64,000 nt of DNA from Candidatus Omnitrophota bacterium (GCA_021731625.1 JAKFXC010000062.1:4479-68478); one strand, 5' to 3'; shown: positions 11,757-57,489, numbered from the stretch's first letter. Numbers and translations are program-made. Notes: generated by a model from the sequence alone, not told the origin.

Positions 11757-11820
11757 TGTTATTTTCATATTTTTTTAATGTGACGAAGGCTAGACTAACA
11801 TAATTAACTGGAGGTGGAAG

Positions 11821-12239: not shown

Positions 12240-12330
12240 CTCCCGCCCGACTTAATATTGATTTAATCCTCCTTTAATCCGCAATTTTGTAGACTAACCT
12301 CAACCATCAATCAATTGACAACCATCGGAG

Positions 12331-13511: not shown

Positions 13512-13541
13512 TTTAATTTTCACATTCTTTTAATCGCCACC

Positions 13542-17394: not shown

Positions 17395-17477
17395 TTTTTT
17401 CTTAATGCTGCATTCATTTCGGTTCACATAGAATAAAGGTCCAAGCATTTAAAATTAGTTAATTTAGGAGATGAATT

Positions 17478-17735
17478 ATGGCCGTTTTTAAGTCTATGGA
17501 CGGATCGCCTAAGGCCTTTCGCATCCTGCGTTTTTGTTATGTGGTTTTATCTTTGATTGCCGGATTGGACAAATTTTCTAATTCTTTGGTCAACTGGACC
17601 GCGTATTTGTCGCCGATCGTCAGCAGCAAGATGAATCCGTGTGCATTTATGAAGTTCGTGGGCGTCGTCGAAATCGCCTCCGGACTTTTGGCCATTGTCA
17701 ACCCCCGTAGTGCTGGTTATGTGATTGCCGCCTAG
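17478..17735 (+). CDS. DoxX-family membrane protein, interrupted by in-frame TAG at 17733-17735 (frame stays open to 17861)
   Basis: Two TM helices before the TAG. After it the frame continues LWGIILNLLTIPGYYD...LALANLARDHQHV without another stop for 41 codons, completing a typical ~127-aa DoxX. Confidence 0.5.
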   Translation: MAVFKSMDGSPKAFRILRFCYVVLSLIAGLDKFSNSLVNWTAYLSPIVSSKMNPCAFMKFVGVVEIASGLLAIVNPRSAGYVIAA

Positions 17736-17879
17736 CTTTGGGGGATCATCCTCAACCTTTTGACTATTCCCGGCTACTATGACGTCGCGGCGCGAGACTT
17801 TGCCTTGGCTCTGGGAGTGCTGGCCCTGGCCAATTTGGCCCGGGATCATCAACATGTTTAAATTGACTAAAGGGTCTAC

Positions 17880-19937: not shown

Positions 19938-19938
19938 C

Positions 19939-22713: not shown

Positions 22714-22796
22714 GCAGTTTAATTTTAACTTCATCTTGTTTTAATTTTCATTTTGGTACAGTAGGTCAGCATTTTCATCCCTAAAGGAGAAACGCC

Positions 22797-23168
22797 ATGG
22801 GTAGACATAAGAATCGTTTTAATAACAACCAACCCAATTCGATTCAGCCGCTTGATCATATAGGCCGTGAACCTTCTTATTTTGACATTCAACCCCGCGC
22901 GTATGCACTCCATGAGCAAAAAGGCGGCACTGAGCTGGAGAACTGCTGGAAGCGGAAAGGTAGCGTAAGGAGGCAAGGCATGCTGCTCGTTGAGCGCAAC
23001 CTTCTCAATACATGTGTCATCCTCGTGGCTGGATTTTGCCTCCTGCAGGGGTGCCGGGAGCAGAAGGCAACGTCGGACCCCAAGACCCAGTTTTCTAATT
23101 TTGTGAATGAAGGCAGTTCACATCAGGAAGAAGCGCCGGTGAATACTTGGGTGAACGTGGCATTTTAA
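22797..23168 (+). CDS. Hypothetical protein; C-terminal half could be an independent small lipoprotein (start 22980, lipobox LLQGC)
   Basis: RBS aaaggag before 22797 and aaggagg before the internal ATG 22980; no recognisable domain. Confidence 0.3.
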   Translation: MGRHKNRFNNNQPNSIQPLDHIGREPSYFDIQPRAYALHEQKGGTELENCWKRKGSVRRQGMLLVERNLLNTCVILVAGFCLLQGCREQKATSDPKTQFSNFVNEGSSHQEEAPVNTWVNVAF

Positions 23169-23889: not shown

Positions 23890-26237
23890 TCGGCAGCATA
23901 GAGGGCCTTATTCGATCAACCCGGCGGAGGCTCAATCGCAGCTATTGGGCCATTCGGCTGTTGGGGCTTTCTAAACTCGACCAGCCGATTCAGGCCCCCG
24001 GCCTGATCATGGTGCAGATTGACGGACTTTCCTTGACGCAGGTGCAAAACGCCATGCGTCAAGGAAATGTCCCTTTCTTAAGCCGCTTGCTTTCCCGCGA
24101 ATCCTACGTTCTGCACACTTTTTTTTCCGGCATTCCTTCCAATACCCCTGCGGTGCAAGCGGAAATTTTTTACGGCGTTAAGACCTGCGTGCCGTCATTT
24201 TATTTTATGGACCGGAGGTTGTGTCGTCCGGTGAAAATGCAGGATGCCGCTTATGTTGAACAATTTGAACAGAAGCTAAAGGAAAAGAATGCCGGGCTGC
24301 TCTCCGGCGGGAGTTCCTATAGCAATATTTTCACCGGTGGGGCTTCCGAAGCCCATTTTTGCTGGGCCCAATTAGGGTTCGGCGGTGTGTTGCACGCGGC
24401 CAACCCTTTGGTATTTCCCTTTTTATTTCTTTTATATATTGATATTTTTGTCCGCACGTTTGTTTTGCTCATCGTGGAATTCTTGATCGCTTTTTATGAA
24501 TGCATCCGGGGCACCCTGAAGGGCCGCTTGTTTTTTGAAGAGCTGCGCTTTGTCATGCTGCGGGTTTTGGTATGCATATTTCTGAGGGAACTGATCGTGG
24601 CCGGGGTCTGCATTGACATCATGCGGGGTTTACCGGTCATTCATTGTAATTTTCTGGGCTACGATGAGCAGGCCCATTGCCGGGGCCCATCGTCGCGTTT
24701 TGCCCACTGGGCTTTGCAAGGCATTGATGCTGCCATCAAACGCATTGACCACACCATGAAACAATCGCCTTACCGTGAATATGACCTCTGGGTGTACGGG
24801 GACCATGGCCAGGAAACCACCACCCCGTATTTTATCCGCTACGGCCGCACCATCGAAGAGGCGGTGCAGGAACTCTTTGGCAAGAATCTGGATCCGGTGG
24901 TGCGTCGCCGCAATTTGCGGCAGCACAATGCCGACGGACGGGCCGATTTATTGGTCAGTCGAAAAGACAAACCATTGCCCCGGGGGGAGCAGCCAGAGAT
25001 TTTAGTCACCGCCATGGGGCCTTTGGGGCAAATTTACGTGAAGAAAAAACTCAGTCAGGCAGAATTGGAATTTTTTGGCAATGAATTGGCGACTAAGCTG
25101 CATATCCCGCTGGTGGTGATCCGCCAAGGCCAAAAGCTCTTGGCGTACACCCCGCACGGGTCTTATACCTTGCCGGACCAAACCGCCTTAGTGTTTGGCG
25201 AGGATCATCCTTTTCTTGAGGACATTCAGGTCGATTTTATGACTGCATGTTTCCATCCGGATGCCGGCGAGTTCATTATTGCGGGGTGGAGCAAAGGCGA
25301 GTCGCCGATCAGCTTTCCTTTAGAGTATGGGGCCCATGCCGCCATGAGTGTTGAGGAAACCCGGGCTTTTGCCCTCATGCCGGTTGATGCCCCTTTAAAA
25401 TCCCGGTCTAAAAAATATCTCCGACCCCTGGATTTGCGGGACACCGCCCTGCGGTACCTTAATAAGGAAGTGATCGGGCCGGCAGCGGCGCCGGAGGAAG
25501 TGCCTGGGGTGCTGCGCCTCATGAGCTACAATGTGCACGGGTGCAAGGGCATGGATGGTTATCTGTCCACGGAACGCATCGCGCGGGTCATTGCCCGGCA
25601 CCGTCCTGATGTCATTGCCCTGCAGGAACTCGACGTCGGACGGGCCCGGTCCCAAGGCATGGACCAGGTCCAAAAGGTGGCCAAGTATCTCGAGATGAAG
25701 TATCATTTTCATCCTGTTCTCTGCCAGGAAGCCGAGCAATACGGCAATGCCATTTTAAGCCGGTACCCTGTGACCTTGATCAAAGTCGCGACCCTGCCCG
25801 GGCTTCATGATCAAGAACCTCGAGGGGCCATGTGGGTCCAAATAGAGTTTCAAAACATTGGTGTTCATGTGATTAACACCCATTTGAGTATTTGGCCGAG
25901 GGAACGGATGCTGCAGGTGAAAGCCCTTTTAAGCGAACAGTGGATAGGTCAGCACGACCATCGCACTCCTTTGGTTTTATGCGGAGATTTTAATGCCATG
26001 CCCGGATCATCTTCCTATAAACGGATTTGCCAAAAATTAAAGGATAGCCAGACCCTGCTGAACGGACATCAACCCTTCCGCACTTGGTTTGGTCGATACC
26101 CGGTGTCCCAGATCGACCACGTCTTTGTGAACCCTCAATTGAAGGTCCACGCCGCGTCTGTTCCCCACACCAGCCTCGATAAGGTGGCCTCGGACCACCT
26201 ACCGCTCATCGTCGACCTTAAGATGTATGTAAATTAA
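23886..26237 (+). CDS. Fusion phosphoesterase: N-terminal alkaline-phosphatase-like (type I phosphodiesterase/nucleotide pyrophosphatase) domain, internal TM segments, C-terminal endonuclease/exonuclease/phosphatase (EEP) domain
   Basis: AlkP-core motifs VQIDGLS, SGIPSNTP and VYGDHGQ. EEP motifs LRLMSYNVHG, IALQELD, VINTHLS, CGDFNAMPGS, DHVF, SDHLPL. Hydrophobic stretch at residues ~190-250. Confidence 0.65.
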   Translation: MIGSIEGLIRSTRRRLNRSYWAIRLLGLSKLDQPIQAPGLIMVQIDGLSLTQVQNAMRQGNVPFLSRLLSRESYVLHTFFSGIPSNTPAVQAEIFYGVKTCVPSFYFMDRRLCRPVKMQDAAYVEQFEQKLKEKNAGLLSGGSSYSNIFTGGASEAHFCWAQLGFGGVLHAANPLVFPFLFLLYIDIFVRTFVLLIVEFLIAFYECIRGTLKGRLFFEELRFVMLRVLVCIFLRELIVAGVCIDIMRGLPVIHCNFLGYDEQAHCRGPSSRFAHWALQGIDAAIKRIDHTMKQSPYREYDLWVYGDHGQETTTPYFIRYGRTIEEAVQELFGKNLDPVVRRRNLRQHNADGRADLLVSRKDKPLPRGEQPEILVTAMGPLGQIYVKKKLSQAELEFFGNELATKLHIPLVVIRQGQKLLAYTPHGSYTLPDQTALVFGEDHPFLEDIQVDFMTACFHPDAGEFIIAGWSKGESPISFPLEYGAHAAMSVEETRAFALMPVDAPLKSRSKKYLRPLDLRDTALRYLNKEVIGPAAAPEEVPGVLRLMSYNVHGCKGMDGYLSTERIARVIARHRPDVIALQELDVGRARSQGMDQVQKVAKYLEMKYHFHPVLCQEAEQYGNAILSRYPVTLIKVATLPGLHDQEPRGAMWVQIEFQNIGVHVINTHLSIWPRERMLQVKALLSEQWIGQHDHRTPLVLCGDFNAMPGSSSYKRICQKLKDSQTLLNGHQPFRTWFGRYPVSQIDHVFVNPQLKVHAASVPHTSLDKVASDHLPLIVDLKMYVN

Positions 26238-26331
26238 TCTTGTTTTCATGTTCTCTTAATGGTGGGATTGGTAAATTAATCCGCGTTTAGGAACGCAATC
26301 ACAGAGAAAACCAGCTAAAAAGGAGACTCAC

Positions 26332-27096
26332 ATGTTTAAAGACTTTCGCTTACTGTTTGCGGTAGGAGTCATGGCTTTATCGTTTGCCGCGTCCGCACGG
26401 GCGGCAGATACGGATGGTCGTATTGAATCCTCGTTTAAGAATTCATACGTCTATAAAACTTATTTGAGAGACGATCAGATTGATATCCATGTCAAACACG
26501 GCGTGGTGACATTGACTGGCACGGTGGATCAAGAAAATCATCGGGGCTTGGCCCAAGAAACGGCGGCGGGTTTACCGGGAGTACAACGGGTGGAAAATAC
26601 CCTGGAAGTTCGTGGGGGGAAAGTACCGGAGCAATCGGACGCTTGGTTGGCTATGAAGGTCAAAGCCGCATTGGTGTTTCACCGCAGTGTTAGCGGTTTA
26701 AGGACCCAGGTGGAAACCAAAGACGGTATAGTAACTTTGAGAGGCGAAGCGGAAAGTCAAGCTGAAAAAGACCTGGCCGCCGAATATGCCAAGGATGTCG
26801 AGGGAGTGAAATCCGTCCGAAACGACATGGTCATCGCCAAGAACGACAATCCTGACCAGATAGACAAACAAACATTTAAGGAAAAAATTGATGATGCATC
26901 CATCACCGCGCAAGTCAAGACAGCCTTGTTGTCGCATCGCTCAACCAGCGCCATCGGGACTAAAGTCGAGACCCGTGACGGGGTTGTGACGGTCAGCGGC
27001 AATGCCAAAAACCAGGCTGAGAAAGACCTAGTGACCAAACTGGTGACCGACATCAAAGGTGTGGATAGAGTCGTTAATAATATGAACGTAAGCTAA
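26332..27096 (+). CDS. BON-domain protein with three BON repeats (OsmY-like), signal peptide
   Basis: Repeated ...V.HGVVTLTG.V....K..A...A..V.GV..V.N.L.V pattern three times. Confidence 0.8.
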   Translation: MFKDFRLLFAVGVMALSFAASARAADTDGRIESSFKNSYVYKTYLRDDQIDIHVKHGVVTLTGTVDQENHRGLAQETAAGLPGVQRVENTLEVRGGKVPEQSDAWLAMKVKAALVFHRSVSGLRTQVETKDGIVTLRGEAESQAEKDLAAEYAKDVEGVKSVRNDMVIAKNDNPDQIDKQTFKEKIDDASITAQVKTALLSHRSTSAIGTKVETRDGVVTVSGNAKNQAEKDLVTKLVTDIKGVDRVVNNMNVS

Positions 27097-34410: not shown

Positions 34411-34499
34411 CCTGCCGAGTTTAATATTCTATTAACCCAGCATTCATCTGCATTCCTCTATAATTTGATCAATGAGACACGCAAAAAAGAGAGGATGAT

Positions 34500-34826: not shown

Positions 34827-36602
34827 TACGCCATTATCGGCAATTGCACCACCGCTGCCCTGGTTAACGACGATTGTTCCATTGACTGGCTGTGCCTGCC
34901 TTTTTTTGACTCCCCGTCGATTTTTGCCCGTCTCCTGGACCAAAAAATAGGCGGCCATTTCAAGATTTGGGCCAAGGACGTGGTCAGTGTCGAGCAGGCC
35001 TACATCACCCATACTCCCATCTTAAAAACCATTTTCACCACCAAAGACGGCATTTTTGAGGTCCGCGATTACATGCCCCGCTTTGAACTCGCCGAAGGGG
35101 AGGTGTATTGCCCGTCCGAAATCCACCGCATCATCCGTCTGGTCCAGGGGAATCCAAAAATGACCGTTGAGCTTCAACCGCGCCCCAACTATGCCTTAAG
35201 CGAGGCGCACTTTGTCCATTCGAGCGAATATTTAAAAATCACCTCGATGAGCGGAGAGTACAACAGTTTTTATCTGTACTCGAATTTGAATCTCCACGAT
35301 GTCCTGAGTAATAAGGAAATGGAAATCAAGGAGTCATCCTATTTTTTATTGTCCTACCATGAGAAACTGGAAACGATAAACCCCGAAAAGATCCTGGTCG
35401 AGTATGAACGCACCAAGAGCCATTGGATGTACTGGGTGTACCGCACCAAAATTCCGGAGAGATACCGGGAAATGCTCATCCGTTCGATCATCACCTTAAA
35501 ACTCTTGATGTTCCAACGCACCGGCGCGGTGATTGCGGCCCCGACCACGTCTTTGCCTGAAATTATCGGGAAGGACCGCAACTGGGATTACCGTTATTGC
35601 TGGATGCGCGATTCAGCCATGATCATTTATCTATACACGCATTTGGGTCACGCGCGTTCCGCGTCCCGGTACATTTCATTCATTTTAAACCGGATGCTGC
35701 TTAAACATGAGGACATCGCGGTGATGTACGGCATCAACGGCGAACGCCTGCTGGAGGAGAGGGTCCTGGAGCATCTTAGCGGTTACGCAAATTCCCGCCC
35801 GGTGCGCGTGGGCAATGACGCCTATAGGCAAAAACAGAACGATGTGTACGGCGAATTGATTGAAACCATCTATGCGTTTTTTATTGCCAACCCTAAGGAG
35901 GTCATAGGGGTCAATGAGGAAATCTGGACCCTGGTGCGTTCCCTCGTCAATCGCGTGCTGGCCACCTGGCGAGACCCTGACAGCGGCATTTGGGAGAGGC
36001 GGGGGCCCATGCGGCATTTTGTGCATTCCAAACTGATGAATTGGGTGGCCATGGACCGGGCCGCCAAAATCGCGCAATTCGTCGGGAAAACCCGGTATGT
36101 GCCGGGGTATCTAAAAGTGGCGGATGAAATCAAGGACGATATTTTAAAAAATGGATGGAACCAGGACCAGCAAAGTTTTATGATGTATTATGGAGGAGGG
36201 GAGCTGGATGCTTCCAGCCTTTTGATGTTGCACTACGGCTTTTTGGACCGCAAAGACCCCCGCATGGTCAGCACCGTGCAGACCTTGCACCGGGAATTGA
36301 CCAGGGAAGGATTTGTGTTGCGTTACAAAGCTGCGGATGAGTTTGGGGTTCCGGAAAACGCCTTCATTGTGTGCACTTTTTGGATGATCAATGCCCTCTA
36401 TTTAATTGGGCAAGAACAGCAGGCCAGAGTCATGCTAGAAAAAATGATTTCCTTCGCGAACAAATTCGGACTTTATTCCGAAGACATTGAGCCGGCCACC
36501 GGGCGTTTGACCGGAAATTTTCCCCAGGGGTATTCGCATCTGGCCTTCATCCAAACTATTTTTTTGCTGGAAACCCAATACGACTGGAGCGATGCGGCCT
36601 AA
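34827..36602 (+). CDS. Glycoside hydrolase family 15 (glucoamylase/trehalase-type); true start lies upstream of the annotated ATG 34980 and is non-canonical or disrupted
   Basis: The conserved GH15 N-terminus YAIIGNCTTAALVNDDCSIDWLCLPFFDSPSIFARLLD is encoded from 34827, in frame with the 34980 ORF. There is no ATG/GTG/TTG between the upstream stop (34752) and this motif. The catalytic region SLPEIIGKDRNWDYRYCWMRDSA is present. Confidence 0.7.
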   Translation, partial: YAIIGNCTTAALVNDDCSIDWLCLPFFDSPSIFARLLDQKIGGHFKIWAKDVVSVEQAYITHTPILKTIFTTKDGIFEVRDYMPRFELAEGEVYCPSEIHRIIRLVQGNPKMTVELQPRPNYALSEAHFVHSSEYLKITSMSGEYNSFYLYSNLNLHDVLSNKEMEIKESSYFLLSYHEKLETINPEKILVEYERTKSHWMYWVYRTKIPERYREMLIRSIITLKLLMFQRTGAVIAAPTTSLPEIIGKDRNWDYRYCWMRDSAMIIYLYTHLGHARSASRYISFILNRMLLKHEDIAVMYGINGERLLEERVLEHLSGYANSRPVRVGNDAYRQKQNDVYGELIETIYAFFIANPKEVIGVNEEIWTLVRSLVNRVLATWRDPDSGIWERRGPMRHFVHSKLMNWVAMDRAAKIAQFVGKTRYVPGYLKVADEIKDDILKNGWNQDQQSFMMYYGGGELDASSLLMLHYGFLDRKDPRMVSTVQTLHRELTREGFVLRYKAADEFGVPENAFIVCTFWMINALYLIGQEQQARVMLEKMISFANKFGLYSEDIEPATGRLTGNFPQGYSHLAFIQTIFLLETQYDWSDAA

Positions 36603-37273
36603 TGCGCACATTCATTTTGGTCGTGTCTTTGTTCTCTTTCCCGGTAACAGCCGTCGCGGCGCCGGCCTACGGCACCCGTATGCCCGAGAGCCGTCATGCG
36701 ACCGTGGGTTTGCAAGCCTACAATATTTTTTACAGCAAATTGGAAAAAGATTATGGCAAAATCAGCAGTTTGCAGCATTTTGGTCTGCTCACCCTGGGGA
36801 TATTTGACTGGTTGTGTTTGGATTTGAAGGGCGGGGCGGGCCATGTGCATTCTCGCAATGCCGCGGCCGGAGACATCAATTACACCCCGTTTTTAGGCGG
36901 CGGGTATGGGTTTAGGGTGCGGGTCCTGGAACACGAGCAAACCAAGGCCGTGATTGGATTTCAACATATCAGCATTCACCCCTATTCAAAGGTGATCGGC
37001 AACGGCAGAAATAAAGCCGTGCTGGACGATTGGCAATTTTCCGGCCTGGTTTCTTATGAACTTAAAGCATTGACCCCCTACATTGGAGGCCGGTGGTCCA
37101 GGGTGGACCACATCCACTGGATCAATGATCAACGCAAAAGAGAACAACCCGTCCGCACCGCCGGTTTGATCACCGGCTTCGACATTCCGCTGAACGCGAA
37201 AACCTGGCTGAACATCGAAGGCCAGTTCTTGGACGCCACTGCCGTCGCTGCCAGCATCAATTTTTCCTTCTGA
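36602..37273 (+). CDS. Outer-membrane beta-barrel protein (signal peptide, C-terminal aromatic F)
   Basis: Signal peptide FPVTAVAAPA, amphipathic strands, terminal INFSF typical of OMP C-termini. Confidence 0.5.
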   Translation: MRTFILVVSLFSFPVTAVAAPAYGTRMPESRHATVGLQAYNIFYSKLEKDYGKISSLQHFGLLTLGIFDWLCLDLKGGAGHVHSRNAAAGDINYTPFLGGGYGFRVRVLEHEQTKAVIGFQHISIHPYSKVIGNGRNKAVLDDWQFSGLVSYELKALTPYIGGRWSRVDHIHWINDQRKREQPVRTAGLITGFDIPLNAKTWLNIEGQFLDATAVAASINFSF

Positions 37274-37391
37274 CCAATCCCTCGACTTAAAAATTTTTAA
37301 TTTACGATTCATGTTCTCTTCATTTTTATTTTAGTACGATAACATCCATAGTTCGCAAACAACCCCGTCCTTACTAGGGAAAGGAGTAGTC

Positions 37392-37628
37392 ATGAGAAAG
37401 AATATCCACCAAAGGAAATGGCAGCAGGATCGATCGGCAGCGGAATTGTTCCCCACACAGCAGAAAGACGATGATGATATTTTCGCGTCCCGCTACGCCA
37501 ACAACGATCCTCTGGAGCCGCAGGATTTGCAATTGCCGTATTACAGCTATACAGATGAGGCAGACTTTTTAGAAGGCAAAGTCACCACCTATGTCAGCTT
37601 TCCCTGGGAGGACGATGAAGAGGAATAG
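37392..37628 (+). CDS. Small acidic hypothetical protein
   Basis: ORF with a strong downstream intrinsic terminator; highly acidic C-terminus (WEDDEEE). Confidence 0.35.
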   Translation: MRKNIHQRKWQQDRSAAELFPTQQKDDDDIFASRYANNDPLEPQDLQLPYYSYTDEADFLEGKVTTYVSFPWEDDEEE

Positions 37629-37653
37629 CCCCTTCCTGTGTGATCTTTCCTTC

Positions 37654-37683
37654 GGCCGGTCTGTCCAAGACCGGCCTTTTTTT
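37654..37683 (+). terminator. Rho-independent terminator (ggccggtc-tgtccaa-gaccggcc + T7)
   Basis: Perfect 8-bp GC stem and a 7-T tract. Confidence 0.75.
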
Positions 37684-37685
37684 GA

Positions 37686-37725
37686 CATGAAAATATTTTC
37701 ATGAAGAATTCATGTCCGGTTCATG
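37686..37725. promoter_or_regulatory. 18-bp perfect palindrome CATGAAAATATTTTCATG followed by three TTCATG direct repeats at 11-bp phasing (37698, 37709, 37720); candidate response-regulator operator upstream of the RR/HK pair
   Basis: Seen in the sequence. The direct-repeat spacing equals one helical turn, as in OmpR/PhoB-family sites. Confidence 0.4.
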
Positions 37726-37891
37726 GCGGATGTGATAAATCTATTCAACTTCATGTGTAAGTGTCTTAGTCTTCACCGGTTGCGGCACAATCAACAGCGT
37801 TGGGGACGTCAAACGATAACCATTGACAATTTTTTGTTTCAGGACTAAAGTTTCCTATTAACGGAAATGTACCCCAAGCGGAGGAGAATAC

Positions 37892-38560
37892 ATGCGCATC
37901 TTAGTCATAGATGATGAAAAAAGGGTGACTGGCTTTATTGCCCGTGGTTTGAAAGAGCGCCATTATGTGGTGGATGTGGCCAACGACTCTCAGGAAGCCC
38001 AGGAAAAGGCCGAAATTAACCCATATGACCTGATTATTCTCGATATCCTTATGCCTGACAAGGACGGGATCTCTATTTGCAGAGAGTTGAGAAAGAACAA
38101 AATCGCCACCCCTATTTTGATGCTGACGGCCCGCAGCGGGGTCAGGGACAAGGTGCGGGGTTTGGACGTGGGGGCGGACGATTATTTGACCAAGCCGTTT
38201 GTCTTTGATGAGCTCTTGGCCAGAGTCAGGGCCTTGTTGCGCCGCGAAGTTAAAGAAAAACAGAATATGTTGCGAGTTGCCGACCTCGAACTCAACCAAT
38301 TGACGAGGGAAGTTAAACGCCAGGACAGGGCCATTACCTTGACCAGCAAAGAATACGCGTTGCTGGAATATTTTATGTTGAATGCCAATGAAGTCATCAC
38401 CCGCACCATGATTTCCGAGCATGTTTGGCAGGAGGATTTCGATAGTTTCACCAATGTCATTGACGTCTATGTCAAACATTTGCGGGACAAGATTGACCGG
38501 GGGTTTGGTAGTTCCTTGATCCAGACCATTCGAGGCACCGGTTATATCCTTAAAGAATGA
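37892..38560 (+). CDS. OmpR-family winged-helix response regulator (CusR/CopR-like)
   Basis: REC domain (DD...D53 ILD, T/K) plus Trans_reg_C; the C-terminal IQTIRGTGYIL resembles the heavy-metal RR subgroup. Confidence 0.85.
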   Translation: MRILVIDDEKRVTGFIARGLKERHYVVDVANDSQEAQEKAEINPYDLIILDILMPDKDGISICRELRKNKIATPILMLTARSGVRDKVRGLDVGADDYLTKPFVFDELLARVRALLRREVKEKQNMLRVADLELNQLTREVKRQDRAITLTSKEYALLEYFMLNANEVITRTMISEHVWQEDFDSFTNVIDVYVKHLRDKIDRGFGSSLIQTIRGTGYILKE

Positions 38561-40104
38561 AGGCATCCTTTTTATCCTCACCGCTCAAAAGTTTAGCAGC
38601 CGCCATTAAATTCAATTCTATCAAGTTCAAGTTCAGCGTGCTCTACACGGTTATCCTGGGCATCATCTTGGTGGTTTTTAGTGTGGTGTTGTATGCCATC
38701 CTCGCTTTTTACCTCTATCAAAATATTGACTTCAGCTTAAAGCTCAAGGCCCGGGAAGTCATGGCCGCAATTGAAAATTATGCTTCACTCGGCGACAAAC
38801 CCCAGGTCTTGGATGCGGCGGTCAAGAAAACGCTGCTTTATCCGGTGGAGAATTTTCCGGTGGGCATGTTTGAGCAGGGCAAGCTCAAGCGCCTGGAAAC
38901 CAAGTGGGAGGAACGGGCCGATGCCATGCGTTTAAGCGACACGGTTATCGCCTTCATTTCGCTGCAGCCGACCCGCGCCATCAAAAGTCGGAATTTTCCC
39001 GCCAAAATGGTCCCTCAATTCGTCACCCTGGCACAACTGTCGATGGGCAGCAAACAGCCGATGTTTTATAACCAGCGGTTTAGCGGGAATGCGTACCGGG
39101 TGATCGCGGTTCCCTATGCTCGGGAAGGCCAGCGAGTTTCGGTCTTAACCATAGGCACGTCTTTAAAACCGATTGAACGCGTGCTGGGCAGCTTTTTGCA
39201 AGCCACCGGTTTGGGGATCCCGCTGGTCTTGATCCTGACCAGTTTTGTGGGGCTATTTTTTGTCAAACGGCTGCTGGGCCCCATCGAGGAAATCGCCCGC
39301 ACCGCCAACCGCATCACCCACGAAGACCTGGACGCGCGCATCAAAACCGAACACTTAGATAGCGAAATTGAATATCTAGTGGGTTCGTTTAATGACATGA
39401 TCGGGCGGCTGGAACGTTCCTTCACCCACATCAATGAATTCAGCTCCCAGGTGGCGCATGAACTCAAAACGCCCTTGGCCATCATTAAAGGCGAGTCGGA
39501 GCTGGCACTGGGGCAGCCCCGCGACGTGGATGAGTACCGTTCCACCATCCGCATCAATATGGAGGAGGCCAGCCGCATGCGCAAGACCATTGAAGACCTC
39601 TTGCTGCTGGCCCGGCTAGACTACCATCCGGAGGGTTTTAATTTTCAGAGTTTTGACTTTGTGGAATTTTTCCGCGAGATTTGCGAGCAGACCGAAATCC
39701 TGGCCGCCGATAAGGGCCATCAGATCAAGGCCGTGTTGCCGGACAGCAAAATCCTCATCACTGCGGACAAACTGCATTTGCGGCGGATGTTTTTTAACAT
39801 CATCGACAATGCGCTAAAGTACACTTTGCCGCCGGGGGAGATTAAGCTGCAGGTGGCCTGCAAAAGAAAAAAAATCCTGGTTTTGATCTCTGACAACGGG
39901 GTGGGCATTCCCGCCCAGGACATTTCCAAAATTTTTGACAAATTTTACCATTCCGACCGCACCGGACAAAATGAGTTCCGCAGCAATGGTTTGGGCCTCA
40001 GCATTGTGCACTCCATTTTGAAAATCCACCATGGCCAGGTGAGGGTCACCAGCCGCATCAACCAGGGGACCACCTTTCACATCATGCTTCCCGCACAGCT
40101 TTGA
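38557..40104 (+). CDS. Sensor histidine kinase (heavy-metal sensor kinase architecture: 2 TM + periplasmic loop + HAMP + HisKA + HATPase_c)
   Basis: H-box SQVAHELKTPL, N/G boxes IIDNALKY, DNGVGI and GLGLSIV. Confidence 0.85.
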   Translation: MKASFLSSPLKSLAAAIKFNSIKFKFSVLYTVILGIILVVFSVVLYAILAFYLYQNIDFSLKLKAREVMAAIENYASLGDKPQVLDAAVKKTLLYPVENFPVGMFEQGKLKRLETKWEERADAMRLSDTVIAFISLQPTRAIKSRNFPAKMVPQFVTLAQLSMGSKQPMFYNQRFSGNAYRVIAVPYAREGQRVSVLTIGTSLKPIERVLGSFLQATGLGIPLVLILTSFVGLFFVKRLLGPIEEIARTANRITHEDLDARIKTEHLDSEIEYLVGSFNDMIGRLERSFTHINEFSSQVAHELKTPLAIIKGESELALGQPRDVDEYRSTIRINMEEASRMRKTIEDLLLLARLDYHPEGFNFQSFDFVEFFREICEQTEILAADKGHQIKAVLPDSKILITADKLHLRRMFFNIIDNALKYTLPPGEIKLQVACKRKKILVLISDNGVGIPAQDISKIFDKFYHSDRTGQNEFRSNGLGLSIVHSILKIHHGQVRVTSRINQGTTFHIMLPAQL

Positions 40105-40223
40105 TGTATTTATATTATTAAAATAAATTAATTTTAATTTCACGTTTTGTTCATACCTCCCTTGGTATCTTTAATACGCCAGCTGACGTGCATTTGACAT
40201 TGTCATAACTAAGGTAAAATATC

Positions 40224-40577
40224 ATGAAAAAAGTACTCATTGTGGAGGACGAACAGAGGATCACCGACATCTATTTGCGTTTACTGGTGCCGGCGGGCTA
40301 TATTGTCCGCTGCGCCAATAATGCGCAGGCTGCCACCAGCATCTTGGTCAGGGAAAACATTGACCTGGTCTTGCTGGACATTAAGATGCCGAAAATCAAC
40401 GGCCAAAAGATATTTGAAATCATCGAAGAGTATAACCCTGACATTAAAGTCATTGTCAGCAGTGTGTATCCGGTCGAGAAGCAGAAGGAGTTGCTGCCGC
40501 AGGCGGAGAATTATTTTGACAAATCCGAAGGTCCCATGAACCTTTTGGCCAAAGTCCAGCATGCTTTGGCAGGCTGA
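40224..40577 (+). CDS. Single-domain response regulator (receiver only)
   Basis: VLIVEDE, LLDIKMP and VIVSS motifs; 117 aa. Confidence 0.75.
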   Translation: MKKVLIVEDEQRITDIYLRLLVPAGYIVRCANNAQAATSILVRENIDLVLLDIKMPKINGQKIFEIIEEYNPDIKVIVSSVYPVEKQKELLPQAENYFDKSEGPMNLLAKVQHALAG

Positions 40578-43110
40578 AACGTCTCGTCTCATGTTTAAAA
40601 AAATCATTCTTACCCAATCCTCACGTGTGTTCCCCACCGTAGATCCTCGCCGGGTGTACGATGTTTTGCGCATCCTGGCGCTGGCCTGGCTCTATTATGT
40701 GGCAGCGATGTGGAGTCTTCAGTTTGCCTTTAAAGAAACCAATGCCTCGCCGGTGTGGTTGCCGTCGGGCATTGCCTTTACTGGCCTGCTGATTTTTGGT
40801 TTCCAGCTGTGGCCGGGCATTTGGCTGGGGGCGTTCCTGGCCAATCTGCATATTTCTTTAGCCAGCCACTTTTTGACAGTCCCCGCCGCTTCGTTTGTGC
40901 TGGCCTTTCTCATCGCCTGGGGCAACACCGCCGAAGCCGTGTTGGGGGTATTTTTACTCAACACGCTGATTGGACGCCGCCTGCCCCGCTTTCGCATCCC
41001 GCACATTCTTAAATTGGCCGGCGTGATTCTGGTCGCCGCTTTAGTCAGCGCCTCGGTGGGGGTGACGGCGGTTAGTTTATTCAAAAGTTTTCCGCCGGCG
41101 GAATATCAGACGATGTGGTACGTGTGGTGGATGGGCGATGTCTTAAGTATTTTGATTTTGACCCCGCTGTTTTTGGCGGCCCGCTATGCGCCGCTGAAAA
41201 TCCAGTCGGCCAAACGTTTTGTGGAGACATTGGCCATGCTGGTGGTCATTGCTTTGGTCAACAGCGTCATTTTTGGCACCAAGCCGGGGATCAATACGCC
41301 GTTTTTTCCAACCATCTATTTGAGTTTACCGATCATGGTGTGGTCCACCTATCGCTTCGGGTATTGGGGGACCATTGCCACGTCGTTTATCACTTTGGTT
41401 TGCGGATTGCAGGGGACCACCAATGGGCTGGGTCCCTTTGTCAGCGCTGATCCGGTGTTGTCGATGCTGCTGTTGCAGTCGTTTGTCGGCATCTTGACGT
41501 TGACAGGGCTGGTTTTGGCCGTGGCGTTGAATGAACGGGAGCGGGCGGAAGAGGAAGTGCGGCGGGGGAGTCTGAGGTTTCAGGGTCTAGTGGAAAACAG
41601 CCAGGATATGATTGTGCTCATGGACGACCAGGCCAGGGTAACTTACATCAGTCCGTCGGTGACTAAAATGCTGGGCTATTCGCTGGAGGAATTTCGTGAT
41701 TACATGGCCTATGTCCATCCCGGGGACAATGCGTATGTGCAGGGTCGGCTAGGCCAAGCTCTTGCCGCCACCGGAAACATCGTGGACGGCCAATGCCGCT
41801 TCCGTCACAAGAACGGGGATTGGCGGTGGATCGAAGGCACGGGCCACAATTTATTGCATGACCCGGCCATGCGCGCGGTGGTTTTCAATTACCGCGACAT
41901 CACGCACCGCAAGGAATGGGAAGAGGACCAGCAGCGCTCGAAATTATCTTTGCAGGAAAGTGAACAGCGGTTCCGATCCATGGCCGACACCGCTCCGGTC
42001 ATGATCTGGATGTCCGGGGCGGACATGATCTGCACGTTTTTTAACCAGGAATGGCTGGATTTCCGGGGCCAAAGCATGGAAGAAGAGTTGGGACACGGCT
42101 GGATCCAGGGCCTTTTCCCCGACGACATCAAGCGCTGCTGGACCCAGTATATGAAATCCTTCAAGGCCCATGAAAAATTCACCATGGACTACCGCCTGCG
42201 CCGGGCCGACGGGAACTACCGATGGATTCTAGCCACCGGCGTGCCGCGCTTTACGGCGGACGGTCATTTTTCCGGGTTCATCGGTTCCTGCATCGACATC
42301 ACCGAGCGCAAATTGGCCGAGGAAGTCTTAAAACGGGACAAAGAAAGCCTGGAGCAGCTCGTCGATGAACGTTCCCGGCAGTTGGTCCAGACCCAGCAGG
42401 AACTCAAACACGCAAGCCGTCTGGCGGACATCGGAACTTTGGCCGCCACCGTGGCCCATGAATTGCGCAACCCGCTGGGGGTCATCCACATGGCGGCCTA
42501 TAATTTGAAACGCAAGAACCAAAATTTCGAGAATGACAAACACCTCATCAACATCGAGAAAAAAGTCTGGGAGGGCAATCGCATCATTGACAATTTGCTC
42601 AGTTATTCGCGCATCAAAATCCCTTCCTATGAGCAGGTGCCGCTCAACAGCCTCATTGAGGAATGCATCGGCGTCACCCGCAGCAAATTCCACGACCATG
42701 ACATCATCATCAAAAAGGAGTACCAGGCCCCGGCGATCAACTTCATTGAGGCAGACCCGCACCAGATGAGGGAAGTGTTTGTTAATATTTTAAACAATGC
42801 CTGCCAGGCCTTCCCAAATAAAACCGGGCAGGTAGAAATCCTGGCCCGGGCTGAAGACTCAAATCAAGTGCGGGTGGTTTTTAAAGACAATGGGGCCGGC
42901 ATTGAGCAGGAAGACTTACAAAAAGTTTTTGAGCCGTTTTTTACCCGTAAGTCCAAGGGGACCGGACTTGGCTTGACGATTTGTAATGAGCTGGTGACCC
43001 TTCACCACGGCAAAATTGAAATTGCCAGCCGCACCGGGGAAGGCACCAGCGTTAACGTGATTTTGCCGATCAGCCGGAGGCATAGTGAACAAGAGGTTGC
43101 TCATCATTGA
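40561..43110 (+). CDS. Hybrid-type sensor histidine kinase with N-terminal MASE1 membrane domain, two PAS domains, HisKA and HATPase_c
   Basis: MASE1-like 7-TM N-terminus (LAWLYYVAAMWSLQFAF...), PAS repeats (DWRWIEG.., NYRWILAT..), H-box VAHELRNPL, G-boxes DNGAGI and GTGLGL. Confidence 0.8.
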   Translation: MLWQAETSRLMFKKIILTQSSRVFPTVDPRRVYDVLRILALAWLYYVAAMWSLQFAFKETNASPVWLPSGIAFTGLLIFGFQLWPGIWLGAFLANLHISLASHFLTVPAASFVLAFLIAWGNTAEAVLGVFLLNTLIGRRLPRFRIPHILKLAGVILVAALVSASVGVTAVSLFKSFPPAEYQTMWYVWWMGDVLSILILTPLFLAARYAPLKIQSAKRFVETLAMLVVIALVNSVIFGTKPGINTPFFPTIYLSLPIMVWSTYRFGYWGTIATSFITLVCGLQGTTNGLGPFVSADPVLSMLLLQSFVGILTLTGLVLAVALNERERAEEEVRRGSLRFQGLVENSQDMIVLMDDQARVTYISPSVTKMLGYSLEEFRDYMAYVHPGDNAYVQGRLGQALAATGNIVDGQCRFRHKNGDWRWIEGTGHNLLHDPAMRAVVFNYRDITHRKEWEEDQQRSKLSLQESEQRFRSMADTAPVMIWMSGADMICTFFNQEWLDFRGQSMEEELGHGWIQGLFPDDIKRCWTQYMKSFKAHEKFTMDYRLRRADGNYRWILATGVPRFTADGHFSGFIGSCIDITERKLAEEVLKRDKESLEQLVDERSRQLVQTQQELKHASRLADIGTLAATVAHELRNPLGVIHMAAYNLKRKNQNFENDKHLINIEKKVWEGNRIIDNLLSYSRIKIPSYEQVPLNSLIEECIGVTRSKFHDHDIIIKKEYQAPAINFIEADPHQMREVFVNILNNACQAFPNKTGQVEILARAEDSNQVRVVFKDNGAGIEQEDLQKVFEPFFTRKSKGTGLGLTICNELVTLHHGKIEIASRTGEGTSVNVILPISRRHSEQEVAHH

Positions 43111-43465
43111 CGATGACGAAGAGCTGTGTATGGAGCTTAAAGAGATTTTAGGCGACGAGGGGTACGAGGTGCACGTGGCCATGGACGGGTTTAAGGCCAC
43201 CGCTCTTATAGAACGTGACCAATATGCCGTGATCATTTTGGACCTTAAGCTGCCGAAAATGAACGGATATCAAGTATTGGAAACCGTCAAGCGCCGGGCC
43301 CCGAACCTTAAAGTCATTGTGTTGTCCGGACGCCCGATGGGAGAAACGGCCTTAAACAACACAGCCGATCCCGAGGTGGAAAAGTCGCTGCAATTCGCCG
43401 ATGCGGTCATGAATAAGCCGGTACTCATTCCGGTATTGGTGAAAGAGATTAAGAAATACGCCTAA
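43085..43465 (+). CDS. Single-domain response regulator (GTG start)
   Basis: LLIIDDDEEL, ILDLKLP and VIVLSG motifs; 126 aa. Confidence 0.75.
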   Translation: MNKRLLIIDDDEELCMELKEILGDEGYEVHVAMDGFKATALIERDQYAVIILDLKLPKMNGYQVLETVKRRAPNLKVIVLSGRPMGETALNNTADPEVEKSLQFADAVMNKPVLIPVLVKEIKKYA

Positions 43466-43490
43466 CGAACGCAAAAATAAGGAGAATCCT

Positions 43491-43919
43491 ATGTTCACCA
43501 AAGATTTTGCCGTCGACCATCCCAGGATCATGATTGTAGATGACAATGTGGAGTTTTTAGAGGAATTGGAAGAAATCCTCTCTCAAAGCGGATACGACAC
43601 CCAGACGCTGCCGGACAGCACCAAAGCGTTGGAGCTGGCCAATGAAACCAATCCAGACCTTATCCTGCTGGATTTGAAGATGAGCCCCAAAAGCGGCTTT
43701 CAATTGGCGGACCAATTGCGGCATTCGGAGAAAATGAAGGATGTCCCGATTGTGGCCATGACGGGGTTTTTTACCGAGCAAGAGCATGTGCTCATGATGA
43801 AACTTTGCGGCATCCGGAATTTTATCCTTAAACCTTTTATGCCGCTTAATTTGATCGCCAAAATTGAATTCGCGCTGGGCCGGCGTCCTTCGAATGAATT
43901 TGACGAAGACACCACGTGA
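43491..43919 (+). CDS. Single-domain response regulator
   Basis: IMIVDDN, LLDLKMS and IVAMTG motifs; 142 aa. Confidence 0.75.
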   Translation: MFTKDFAVDHPRIMIVDDNVEFLEELEEILSQSGYDTQTLPDSTKALELANETNPDLILLDLKMSPKSGFQLADQLRHSEKMKDVPIVAMTGFFTEQEHVLMMKLCGIRNFILKPFMPLNLIAKIEFALGRRPSNEFDEDTT

Positions 43920-44007
43920 AGTTTTTTTAATGGTATATTCATGCCCTCTTCACATGGGGTTTAGTAATCTACATCCAGTAGATTCACTTAAAACTAACGG
44001 GAGGGCC

Positions 44008-44304
44008 ATGATGCGATTTTTAATGATTTGTGTTTTACTTACCATGCCTGTGCTTTCCGCAACCGGCTGTGCGCACCGGGCCAGCACCACCCGGACAGAA
44101 ACAACCACCACCACAGACCGGGCCAGCAACATCGAGCCGGCGCAAGACACCACAATCCAGACCAAGACCCAGACCACCGAAACGAACACCACCGACACAC
44201 CTCACAGCGAGGGGGGTATTTTGGGCGGGACTTTCCATGTGGTGGGGGAAATTTTGGCGTTGCCGTTTAGGGTCATTGCCGGTGTTTTTGACGCCATTTT
44301 TTAA
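44008..44304 (+). CDS. Thr-rich lipoprotein
   Basis: Lipobox LSATGC after a signal peptide, then a TTTTTD/TQTTETNTTDT low-complexity region. The ORF-track start at 43864 is an upstream extension lacking signal logic. Confidence 0.5.
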   Translation: MMRFLMICVLLTMPVLSATGCAHRASTTRTETTTTTDRASNIEPAQDTTIQTKTQTTETNTTDTPHSEGGILGGTFHVVGEILALPFRVIAGVFDAIF

Positions 44305-44884: not shown

Positions 44885-45337
44885 TTGTACAATGGCGCTG
44901 TGAATGGCGCCATTGTCTTTTTTTTAACTGTGTCGATGTCCCTCTTAAGCAGCGGGCCCTTGCAGGCGGACCCCTATTCCGTCAAAAAATACAGTCCGAT
45001 TTCTTTAAAAATTGAATTGCCCAAAGACACCTATGCCGTGGGCGAGCGCATCGACGCTAAAATTGTGGTGAGCAGCACCCGCGGCGGGGGTTATCCCGCC
45101 ACATTCAATATCCGTCTCTACCATGGCAAAGACCTTTTCGATGAATACCGGACCAATTTTCCGCGGATTTTTATGGGCCGCACCGAATATGCCTTAAATG
45201 ATTTTGGCATCCCGCCGTTTAATGATTCTCCGGCGGCGGTGGGGGACTGGAACATCAGCATTTTGCAGCAAGACCTGGATGTGTCGAACGCGGCGTGGGC
45301 GACCATCCATGTGGTGATGCCGGAAAGGGAAGAGTAA
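44885..45337 (+). CDS. Hypothetical exported protein
   Basis: Hydrophobic N-terminus; no recognised domain. Confidence 0.35.
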   Translation: MYNGAVNGAIVFFLTVSMSLLSSGPLQADPYSVKKYSPISLKIELPKDTYAVGERIDAKIVVSSTRGGGYPATFNIRLYHGKDLFDEYRTNFPRIFMGRTEYALNDFGIPPFNDSPAAVGDWNISILQQDLDVSNAAWATIHVVMPEREE

Positions 45338-45855
45338 TGCCAGACCTGGACCTGGAAAAAATTTATCTGCTCTTTATCCAATATGGCATGAACGTGCTCG
45401 CTGCGGTGGTCATTTTTATCATTGGCCGCTGGGCAGCGCACCTTATCTCCAACTTTTTTGGGGCTGTATTGGAACGGACCAAGGTCAACTTGACCTTAGT
45501 CTCCTTTGCCAAGCACTTGGCTTTTTACGGGATCATGACCTTTGTGATCATTGCCGCGCTGAACAAGCTGGGGGTGGAAACCACGTCGTTCATAGCGGTT
45601 TTGGGGGCAGCTTCTTTGGCGGTGGGGCTGGCTCTGCAGGGCTCCTTGTCCAATTTTGCCTCGGGCGTGCTGCTTATCGTGTTTCACCCGTTTAGAGTGG
45701 GCGACCACATCGAGGCCGGCGGGGCGAACGGCCGGGTGGTGGAGATCCAGATTTTTAATACCCTGATGGTGACCGATGACTATAAACGCATCATTGTACC
45801 CAACTCCAAAATTACCGCAGATAAAATTGTCATTTTTCCTCCTGCAGCTGCTTAA
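45337..45855 (+). CDS. Small MscS-family mechanosensitive channel protein (TM3 + beta-domain only, 172 aa)
   Basis: The pore-helix motif AVLGAASLAVGLALQGSLSNFASGVLLIVFHPFRVGD..E is the MscS TM3/beta-domain signature. Confidence 0.7.
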   Translation: MPDLDLEKIYLLFIQYGMNVLAAVVIFIIGRWAAHLISNFFGAVLERTKVNLTLVSFAKHLAFYGIMTFVIIAALNKLGVETTSFIAVLGAASLAVGLALQGSLSNFASGVLLIVFHPFRVGDHIEAGGANGRVVEIQIFNTLMVTDDYKRIIVPNSKITADKIVIFPPAAA

Positions 45856-56300: not shown

Positions 56301-57489
56301 AACGAATAATGACAATGATATCAACAATGCCTTACATATGTATGAAAAACTCATCCGTAAAGTTTTCGATATTATTTTTTGGGATCCGCGTGGGAACTTG
56401 ACCGCCAAGGGCCAGGCCTTTAGAGCTGCCTTAGTACGGCTTATGGAGGAAGAAATACCAAGGGTTCGTAAGGACATGGGCAATTTCTCATTGGTCACGC
56501 CCACCAGCGAGTGGGTGGTCAAGCAGTCGCTAAATAATGTTATAGGGTGGATTATTGCAGACCAAACGGTTTTGAACACCAGCAATCCGCAGCAGTGGCA
56601 GCTGTCCATCAAAGAAGATCTCCTCCGTAAAAACCGTAAGAGCCAATATCTGTACAGTGTTGGTTTGGCCGCTCATTTGCATGAAGATCTGCAAAATTAC
56701 CTGGTTGAGTGGACCCAGGACACGGAATTGCAGGATATGTATCCGGATATAAACACAGAGTTGCTGGCTTGGGCGTTTGATATCGAAGGCATTAATATTG
56801 AATTGGATGATCAAAATCGGTTGACTGATAGTCCGCTCGAAAAATTTCAAAATTTAAGAAAATTTTTTGAAAAAAGATTTGTGGATGTGCCTACCATCAA
56901 AGTTTTGCATAAAATGGAAAAATTACGGGAAGGCGGCGATGCGGACGCTCTAGAGAATCTGGAATCTCAAGAATTTTCTTGGGACCTGATCAATAGGATT
57001 TTAAAAAACGAAAAACCCATGAATATCATCAAAAGGCCGGAAGATTATGTCCAGAACTACCAACAGCTGCGGAATAAATATCCTCAGGTCAAGGGTTCAC
57101 CGGAAGATAAAATCTTGGCCAGAGTTTTTCCCAAGGAAGGTCAGTTTTCAAATTTAATTGAAACCAGGAGGATCTTAGAAGAGCAGATCGACCAAGCCCG
57201 CCAAAACTTGCCGGCAGATCATGAGAAGATTCGCAGTTTAGCTGCGGCTTATAAACGTGCCGGCGGTCGCAGCGGAGAGCGGCGTAGCGCAGCGAGTGCC
57301 GCCATGATCGGTGATGACAAAGACGGCGGCATCAATTTGAATCCGGATTTTTATGATCTGCAGATTAATCGCGAAGGTAAAAGAGCTATTGATTTTGCCA
57401 TGCAGGGACCTGCTTTAACTCCGCAGCAAGTCCAAGGCCTCACCCCTGTCATCCTCGGCGTCAAGATCTTGACGCATTTGGAAATTTAA
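53387..57489 (+). CDS. Giant-protein family paralog 3 (~1367 aa if the frameshift is repaired): signal peptide + shared N-domain + pyruvate-carboxylase-type carboxyltransferase TIM-barrel domain + shared C-terminal module; frameshifted in C5 tract 54784-54788
   Basis: ORFs 53387..54958 and 54802..57489. One extra C gives a continuous ...YGMENSSIPPDLEKLVGTEPAFGYYEGEHF. The internal region NGVDVFRIFDAMN...AIHYTKG...LVIKDAAGQLEPEEAYKLVKALRQAGITVPIQIHTHDTNGN...DVSTGELA aligns with the PC/OadA carboxyltransferase domain. Confidence 0.6.

Follow-up and report, generated by a model that had tools for sequence, protein, structure and literature searches.

The two-component locus and its upstream site

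The present analysis concerns a stretch of 64,000 nucleotides from Candidatus Omnitrophota bacterium (GCA_021731625.1 JAKFXC010000062.1:4479-68478), referred to here as the window, and within it a palindrome with phased repeats at positions 37686-37725, in front of an operon coding for an OmpR/PhoB-family response regulator (RR) and a sensor histidine kinase (HK). A preliminary description had reported an 18-bp perfect palindrome whose right arm is the first of three TTCATG copies, placed behind the terminator of the preceding gene and about 170 bp before the RR gene, and had proposed the site as a candidate autoregulatory operator of the two-component system. Reading the sequence again reproduces this layout in every element: CATGAAAATATTTTCATG at 37686-37703 is a perfect palindrome, its right arm (37698-37703) coincides with the first TTCATG, the further copies at 37709-37714 and 37720-37725 follow at intervals of exactly 11 bp, the site begins 3 nt past the T-run of the terminator, and 167 nt lie between the last repeat and the RR start codon (ATG at 37892). 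A fourth TTCATG, seen at 37750-37755 when positions 37300-38100 were read, is not in phase with the others; having no phased partner, it was taken as not significant. The features of the region are as follows.

37654-37683, plus strand: intrinsic terminator, GGCCGGTCT-gtcca-AGACCGGCC plus T-run, ending the 78-aa gene before the site (from stem and fold)
37682-37709, plus strand: sigma-70-like match TTGACA-N16-AAGAAT over the palindrome and repeat 1 (10 of 12 positions)
37686-37691, minus strand: inverted half-site 0 and left arm of the palindrome, CATGAA, which is TTCATG in reverse complement (from sequence and cross-genome offset)
37692-37697, no strand: spacer AATATT, 6 nt, A/T-rich and self-complementary (from sequence)
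37698-37725, plus strand: TTCATG-N5-TTCATG-N5-TTCATG, predicted core RR-binding box in the -35 region of the predicted promoter P1 (from repeats and a position weight matrix, PWM)
37733-37741, plus strand: predicted extended -10 of P1, TG-a-TAAATC, hexamer at 37736-37741 (from its register with other boxes)
37823-37851, plus strand: sigma-70-like promoter P2, TTGACA-N17-TAAAGT, 41 nt before the RR ATG (sequence match)
37892-38560, plus strand: OmpR/PhoB-family RR, 222 aa, receiver and winged-helix domains (profile and structure-chain matches)
38557-40104, plus strand: sensor HK, 515 aa, with HAMP, HisKA and HATPase_c (Pfam/NCBIfam)

Recurrence of the repeats within the window

The direct repeats recur in the window well above expectation. 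Allowing at most one mismatch, TTCATG-N5-TTCATG has five matches in the 64 kb against 0.59 expected, a number reached in 0 of 100 shuffles, and for triples of phased units, with up to 4 mismatches in 18 positions allowed, intergenic DNA contains six where 0.04 would be expected from dinucleotide-preserving shuffles of the intergenic DNA itself (0 of 1000 shuffles). The palindrome taken alone is of borderline significance, with two perfect 18-bp palindromes in the whole window versus 0.29 expected and one in intergenic DNA versus 0.025 expected (p ~0.025). It becomes convincing by comparison, since 18 of 33 related boxes have the corresponding inverted half-site at this very offset. The second perfect 18-bp palindrome of the window, GCGTCAAGATCTTGACGC at 57458-57475, lies near the 3' end of an 895-aa open reading frame (ORF; 54802-57489) and is unrelated in sequence to the TTCATG operator.

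Proceeding from the phased-pair scan to the three-unit scan and then to a PWM scan, at least ten boxes of one layout are found in the window, all on the plus strand and each just upstream of a plus-strand ORF. Their layout is TTAATn-N5-TT(C/A)A(T/C)n-N5-TT(C/A)A(T/C)n, followed after exactly 10 nt by a -10-like hexamer (TAGACT, TAGACT, TAAAAA, TAGAAT, TACAGT, TAAATT, TACGAT, TAAATC, TATCTT and TAATCT), and none of these ten window boxes has a -35 consensus at the proper distance. The site before the RR gene conforms to this pattern, with the P1 hexamer exactly 10 nt past repeat 3, no -35 element, and a PWM score of its repeats of 29.0 (25.5 with a 10-site PWM). When 33 boxes of several genomes are compared, conservation extends beyond the PWM to columns not used in selecting the sites, namely TTTG at +34 to +37, TA at +39/+40 and T at +44, the TA and the T being present in 26-28 of the 33; together they read as an extended -10 element, TTTGnTAnnnT.

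Linkage of the box to the two-component system

For a comparison between genomes, 30 loci with an orthologous HK (22 of them distinct, HK identity 31-60%, 360 kb) were scanned with a PWM built from the window sites only, counting matches with a score of at least 14 on the same strand between -30 and +200 relative to the HK stop codon. A box follows the orthologous HK in 23 of the 30 loci (those with HK identities of 36-60%), and these 23 make up over half of all 43 PWM matches in the 360 kb. The motif is therefore tied to this two-component system, and it is kept by the RR-HK pair in 16-18 of the 22 distinct loci while all other neighbours change. The window counterpart of these HK-linked boxes is the set of repeats from 40128, and the gene behind the box is in most loci a CheY-like ortholog of the 117-aa protein encoded at 40224-40577 of the window. 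This makes up a module of RR, HK, box and receiver-only gene (116-122 aa, motif SSVYPV..Q...P.A.DY(F/Y)DK) that is conserved across the Omnitrophota loci. The CheY-like receiver could be induced by the system itself and serve as a phosphate sink or connector.

The autoregulatory position of the box is less widespread than the one behind the HK. By phylogenetic footprinting, the autoregulatory site itself could be traced only in loci L049 and L050, which carry a box with inverted half-site 84 nt before the RR gene and thus present a second candidate autoregulatory case; the predicted autoregulation by the box is lineage-specific and not conserved in all relatives. The gene neighbourhood that L046-L050 have in common with the window includes BON, DUF1328, MscS and TM7S3-like proteins, as well as a thiamine pyrophosphate enzyme, an aldehyde dehydrogenase, OtsA/OtsB, GH15 and an Exo_endo_phos protein, and in the closer relatives L048 and L049 boxes stand before BON, DUF1328 and other small genes of this island. 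Two further loci show a different element before the closest metagenomic RR orthologs, of 77% identity, a long imperfect inverted repeat GGTAGATGGccGATGGTtACCATCgactATCTACC in place of the TTCATG box (L026 5160-5250, L027 5190-5280).

The palindrome as an inverted half-site

In a view restricted to the window, the palindrome had appeared unique to the RR site and probably incidental, an opinion overturned by the cross-genome table below and by an offset test. Of 33 boxes taken across genomes, 18 carry at offset -11 the motif AT[GT]A[AG], the reverse complement of the repeat core YT(C/A)AT (TTCAT, TTAAT or CTCAT); at any other offset from -40 to -5 the motif occurs only 0-2 times, its background in A/T-rich DNA being about 1%. 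This inverted half-site lies 6 nt upstream of repeat 1, with a core-to-core centre distance of 11 bp, so that all four half-sites come to lie on one helical face. It also tracks the local variant of the direct repeat, as in the combinations GATTAA/TTAATC, CATTAA/TTAATG, AATGAG/CTCATT and CATGAA/TTCATG. The 12 nt before repeat 1 (inverted half-site in capitals, spacer in lower case) read:

Window: CATGAA-aatatt, TATTAA-aataaa, ACTTAA-aaattt, CGTGAA-gttttt
L001: GATTAA-aaaaat
L003, L010, L033, L037: AATGAG-aaaatt
L004, L005: AATGAG-agaatt
L008: AATGAA-aaaatt
L011: CATTAA-aatctt
L026: CATGAA-tttttt
L046: CATTAA-taataa
L048: G/CATGAA-(t/a)aaa(t/a)(t/a), three times
L049: CATTAA-aaattc, GATTAA-aaaatt

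Six window boxes have no clear inverted copy; in five of them (11753, 13508, 17391, 22719 and 26234) the upstream part falls inside the preceding coding region, and the sixth is the box at 12252. The spacer has the consensus AAAATT across boxes, at 0.3-0.9 bits per position. A function of this A/T spacer as an UP element was considered because the spacer is conserved, but a half-site is preferred on account of the adjoining ATGAA, which is too specific for this and varies together with the repeats. The palindrome would accordingly be the canonical junction of half-site 0 and repeat 1 in an operator used throughout the regulon, and it is perfect at this site because both half-sites have the consensus sequence and the spacer AATATT happens to be self-complementary.

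The response regulator and the histidine kinase

The RR consists of Response_reg and Trans_reg_C domains, and the solved chains closest to it are those of DrrD (1kgs) and then PhoP of Mycobacterium tuberculosis (Mtb; E = 9e-52). Its best NCBIfam match is TIGR01387 with 253 bits, below the cutoff of 279.2, and the HK likewise reaches 267.6 bits against TIGR01386, below the cutoff of 292.55; neither protein can thus be assigned to the heavy-metal family (CusRS/CopRS/CzcRS) represented by these two models. The genes behind the boxes are not of the metal-resistance type either, comprising TreX/Y/Z-like enzymes, a glycogen debranching enzyme (GDE), BON, MscS, GYD and CheY-like proteins and small ORFs, and the one gene for cation efflux (10878-11756) precedes a box instead of following one. 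Membership in the PhoB/PhoR phosphate regulon is not indicated, as judged from the low scores (201 bits against TIGR02154 for PhoB, cutoff 296.2; 167 versus 334 for PhoR), the core TT(C/A)AT and the lack of pst or pho genes behind boxes.

Two regions of the RR helices, ITRTMISEHVW and TNVIDVY.K.LR.K, which include the recognition helix, hardly vary between the orthologs, in keeping with a DNA specificity that is conserved. The RR is also the sole protein with a DNA-binding output domain seen in the 64-kb window; the other receiver proteins (12969, 40224, 43085 and 43491) contain no output domain. As read from the translated sequence, the part of the HK that lies behind the N-terminal hydrophobic stretch and before the HAMP domain (starting at residue 234) appears to be a periplasmic sensor domain, and relatives of the kinase are nearly all found in Candidatus Omnitrophota metagenome-assembled genomes and in metagenomes, the closest with 60% identity.

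Terminator, promoters and leader

Upstream of the site, the terminator comprises a stem-loop at 37654-37676 with a 9-pair stem, including seven GC pairs, followed by T7, and the segment 37640-37730 folds with z = -3.4. Downstream of the box, transcription from P1 would start near 37748. P2 is probably the basal promoter of the RR-HK operon. A TTGACA hexamer is found similarly far before the RR gene in L046 and L048, both of which have no box there, while L049 and L050 have the box before the RR gene and no TTGACA; a basal and a feedback promoter therefore appear to be combined in the window.

The distance from the -10 element to the start codon is 150 nt at the RR site, compared with 24-54 nt at eight of the nine other boxes (the exception being the box at 13508). 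The fold of this leader (37742-37891, 150 nt) is no more stable than those of shuffles (z = -0.79), and there is therefore no sign of a riboswitch or attenuator. A scan of 37250-37950 against Rfam 15 (E <= 1) found nothing at the gathering threshold, the best match, with 21.7 bits versus 41, falling on the terminator hairpin.

Proposed function of the site

At a probability of roughly 0.7, the site is taken to be an operator together with promoter P1, through which the adjacent RR controls its own RR-HK operon. The proposal of an autoregulatory operator made in the preliminary description thus gains support from regulon and comparative evidence, namely at least nine other boxes in the window, the 23 of 30 loci, the cases of L049/L050 and the conserved recognition helix of the RR. 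The site presents the features of such an operator, with repeats phased at about 10-11 bp on one face of the helix, overlapping the -35 region at a fixed N10 distance to the -10 element and linked to a winged-helix RR, and it is placed as in an autoregulated operon, between the upstream terminator and the RR gene. The layout suggests an activator-dependent promoter and hence positive autoregulation rather than a generic operator. What the analysis shows is the sequence layout with its statistical excess, its conservation and its link to the two-component system; which protein binds, whether it activates or represses, where transcription begins and which signal induces the system are inferred.

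In the proposed mechanism, four half-sites with the core TTCAT, the distal one inverted (37686-37691) and three direct (37698, 37709 and 37720), would be bound cooperatively by the phosphorylated RR as four protomers, most simply as two dimers, with an occupancy of about -62 to -23 relative to the start near 37748. The promoter-proximal protomer would replace the contact that sigma region 4 makes with the -35 element, and RNA polymerase would be recruited to use the extended -10 TGaTAAATC. This would yield positive feedback from P1 on top of basal expression from P2. The same operator design would drive at least nine other promoters in the window, the RR site being the autoregulatory member of a stress regulon.

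Several observations weigh against this interpretation. No box is found before RR orthologs of 61-77% identity (L026/L027 and most others), the repeats being absent from L002-L012, L026/L027 and L028-L038, and L046 and L048 likewise have no box before the RR gene and only a TTGACA-type promoter. The compared loci are phylogenetically related, so that binomial p-values overstate their independence. The P1 leader of about 144 nt is unusually long, the P1 hexamer TAAATC does not end with the usual T, and the sigma-70-like TTGACA-16-AAGAAT match overlaps the site, so that binding of the RR may repress. Finally, 64 kb of the genome was in view, and another OmpR-type regulator encoded elsewhere could be the binder.

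Alternative explanations

Several OmpR-family regulators, for example TorR and PhoP of Mtb, repress their own genes, and negative autoregulation is the alternative that survives best, although we consider it unlikely. In that case, the RR bound to the palindrome and repeats would occlude a promoter formed by TTGACA at 37682 and AAGAAT at 37709, or would block read-through from the upstream gene. This sigma-70-like match, which could be such an occluded promoter but is of uncertain status, indeed spans the palindrome and repeat 1, and the additional TTCATG at 37750-37755 lies near the predicted start of P1. However, the promoter-like matches around the site are not significantly enriched (3 found versus 1.6 expected from shuffles), the strong terminator already stops upstream transcription, and the site has the same geometry of box, N10 and extended -10 as nine other boxes whose genes have no alternative promoter. 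Activation and repression could also coexist at the site.

It is still less probable that the boxes are real but recognised by a different protein from outside the window, either of the OmpR/PhoB family or, for the palindrome, a dimeric regulator, with the two-component system as a mere target. Apart from the limited part of the genome in view, this would agree with the majority of RR orthologs having no box upstream of their own gene, and the conserved box downstream of the HK attests to linkage rather than to the identity of the binder. Against it stand the persistence of the box beside the RR-HK pair amid changing neighbours, the 11-bp phasing of TTCAT-type units, which is a signature of winged-helix response regulators, and the fact that no regulator in the window other than the RR was seen to have a DNA-binding domain. 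That the palindrome has a protein of its own is disfavoured by its arms, whose half-site is that of the direct repeats and varies along with them.

A role of the palindrome as an RNA or DNA structure (a hairpin or cruciform, part of the terminator or a leader element), with the repeats being incidental, appears highly improbable. A 7-bp A/U-rich hairpin can be formed (-6.1 kcal/mol, z = -2.8), but it is weak, its position is upstream of both predicted promoters, a strong terminator is already complete before it, and no Rfam family reaches its threshold. In the relatives, the spacer is A-rich and not self-complementary, only arms of 5-6 nt are kept, and no compensatory changes are seen for a stem longer than the half-site arms; moreover, the 11-bp phasing and the fixed distance to the -10 element would go unexplained. 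Chance in A/T-rich intergenic DNA, where TTAAT-like words are common and a single 18-bp palindrome is a borderline event, can practically be dismissed in view of the excess of phased triples in intergenic DNA, the constant position, strand and -10 distance, and the recurrence of the layout at the same genomic position in relatives with diverged flanks.

Comparison with known systems

The reading of the site as an RR-activated promoter has close parallels in the OmpR/PhoB family. PhoB boxes have an 11-bp period and lie 10 bp upstream of a TAN3T -10 element, cyanobacterial SphR requires three tandem boxes with a TTAA-containing core, CTTAACCT, and the E. coli phoBR operon is autoregulated (PMC1906773). 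As in PhoB and SphR promoters, the direct repeats of the site replace the -35 element at an 11-bp period and end 10 bp before a -10 of the TAN3T type. In contrast to PhoB, the core is TT(C/A)AT and not CTGTCAT, with no pst or pho genes among the predicted targets, and the site further differs from PhoB and SphR systems by the inverted distal half-site of its operator and by a kinase that apparently has a periplasmic sensor domain. Streptomyces PhoP binds two to six 11-nt units cooperatively (PMC2275107), and tandem dimers of Mtb PhoP displace the contact of sigma R4 with the -35 element in complexes solved by cryo-electron microscopy (PMC11825685). The operator described here is likewise built of 11-nt units, but with another consensus and regulon and with the units fixed at three direct and one inverted. 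The phoPQ operons of E. coli and Salmonella combine a PhoP-P-activated with a constitutive promoter (PMC3750022), similar to the arrangement of P1 (box) and P2 (TTGACA-17-TAAAGT), both of them predictions, before the RR-HK operon, whereas the PhoP box is unrelated in sequence.

CusR, CopR and CzcR belong to the closest NCBIfam families for both RR and HK. CusR reportedly recognises an inverted repeat, as Yamamoto and Ishihama are said to have described in 2005. The cusR box also mediates autoregulation of CusR (PMC10920338). The sequence and spacing of the half-sites differ from those of the CusR/CopR/CzcR type, the body of the operator consists of three direct repeats, and the predicted targets are trehalose, BON and MscS genes rather than metal efflux genes. 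The OmpR-family regulator TorR binds several decameric tor boxes, CTGTTCATAT, before its target promoter (PMC9239176), and the TTCAT core is common to these boxes and the present site. The resemblance is confined to the core sequence; the 25 best NCBIfam matches of the RR do not include TorR, and no tor genes are found nearby. Finally, HP1043 and OmpR bind head-to-head, and TTAA-type half-sites can be read both ways (PMC8345958), which provides a precedent for inverted binding by DNA-binding domains of the OmpR/PhoB family. Unlike in HP1043, an orphan regulator acting independently of phosphorylation on two half-sites, the inverted unit is here added to a direct array of three.

An RR box taking the place of the -35 element and providing positive feedback is textbook mechanism, ordinary for the OmpR/PhoB family, so that the site belongs to a known kind of regulation in an unstudied phylum, and its value is one of annotation and physiology, not of a new concept. 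To our knowledge, nothing is known experimentally about gene regulation in Omnitrophota because the phylum is uncultured, and a literature search on two-component regulation in Omnitrophota returned nothing relevant. The novelty is modest and consists of the putative operator of one inverted and three direct half-sites, the module of RR, HK, box and CheY-like gene, and a regulon for trehalose and envelope stress that is predicted for an uncultured phylum.

Predicted regulon

The boxes of the window other than that of the RR operon are listed below, all on the plus strand, with the evidence for each and the genes behind them.

11753-11796: before the GYD-domain gene 11821-12099 (three-unit scan, PWM)
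12252-12295: before a 141-aa ORF, 12331-12756 (PWM, register)
13508-13551: before a TreZ-like gene (13557-15416) and then the GDE (15409-17394) (PWM, register)
17391-17434: before an 85-aa small membrane protein ORF (17478), TreX/GlgX (17880-19937) and a TreY-like gene (19939-22713) (three-unit scan, PWM)
22719-22762: before a 123-aa ORF, 22797-23168 (PWM, register)
26234-26277: before a triple-BON-domain (OsmY-like) gene, 26332-27096 (phased-pair match, PWM 35.0)
34421-34464: an eleventh box, scoring lower (PWM 17.2), whose hexamer at N10 is a perfect TATAAT; it precedes a 61-aa ORF (34500) with a signal-peptide-like N terminus (PWM)
37285-37340: ACTTAA-aaattt-TTAATT-N5-TTCATG-N5-TTCATT-N10-TACGAT, before a 78-aa acidic ORF, 37392-37628 (phased-pair match, PWM)
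40116-40171: TATTAA-aataaa-TTAATT-N5-TTCACG-N5-TTCATA-N10-TATCTT, directly past the HK stop; predicted to drive the CheY-like gene 40224-40577 and a PAS histidine kinase gene, 40561-43110 (three-unit scan, PWM)
43915-43970: CGTGAA-gttttt-TTAATG-N5-TTCATG-N5-TTCACA-N10-TAATCT, before a 98-aa ORF (44008-44304; a putative lipoprotein from its N-terminal sequence), a TM7S3/TM198-like membrane protein gene and MscS, 45295-45855 (phased-pair match, PWM)

The predicted targets therefore include TreX/Y/Z-like trehalose enzymes, a BON/OsmY-like protein, a transcription unit ending with MscS, GYD and CheY-like proteins, and small secreted or acidic proteins, and the role of the regulon is probably in osmotic or desiccation stress rather than metal resistance. 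A gene set for the formation of trehalose from glycogen (13508-22713) stands behind two of the boxes; L049 and L050 instead have OtsA, OtsB and a GH15 trehalase-like enzyme, encoded behind the CheY-like gene and beside the two-component system. More tentatively, at somewhat less than even odds, the operator of one inverted and three direct half-sites may define a previously undescribed regulon extending across the Omnitrophota, in which a CusRS-like system now controls trehalose synthesis (TreXYZ or OtsAB) and BON/OsmY-like, DUF1328 and MscS proteins of the osmotic or desiccation response, with the CheY-like receiver always induced. If this were true, the inverted distal half-site would imply an unusual mixed assembly of four RR protomers, both head-to-head and head-to-tail. 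The operator consensus nATGAA-AAAATT-TTMATn-N5-TTCATn-N5-TTMATn-N10(TGn)-TAnnnT is testable, and together with a candidate regulator and a coherent set of targets it would make a stress regulon predictable from metagenomes.

Some of the genes close to the boxes show further peculiarities. At the box at 13508, the -10 hexamer TAAAAA (13546-13551) falls within the GTG-started ORF as listed; the true start of the TreZ-like gene is probably the in-frame ATG at 13557, only 5 nt past the -10 element, which suggests a leaderless mRNA or one with a very short leader. The 78-aa acidic ORF (37392-37628), which precedes the RR operon and has its own box, gives no match in Pfam or NCBIfam. In L046 and L047, its place is taken by a 64-aa ORF (L046 9050-9244), and a C-terminal pattern DFL...V..F.P.EDDE is apparently common to both, as judged by eye. 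A further gene, at 36602-37273, codes for a 223-aa protein without family match whose N terminus resembles a signal peptide and which may be an outer-membrane beta-barrel; the gene is syntenic upstream of the two-component system in the window, in L046 (8342-9013) and in L047. On the other side of the operon, the PAS histidine kinase gene is followed by genes for receiver-only proteins of 126 and 142 aa (43085-43919), bringing the number of receivers without output domain to four within 31 kb.

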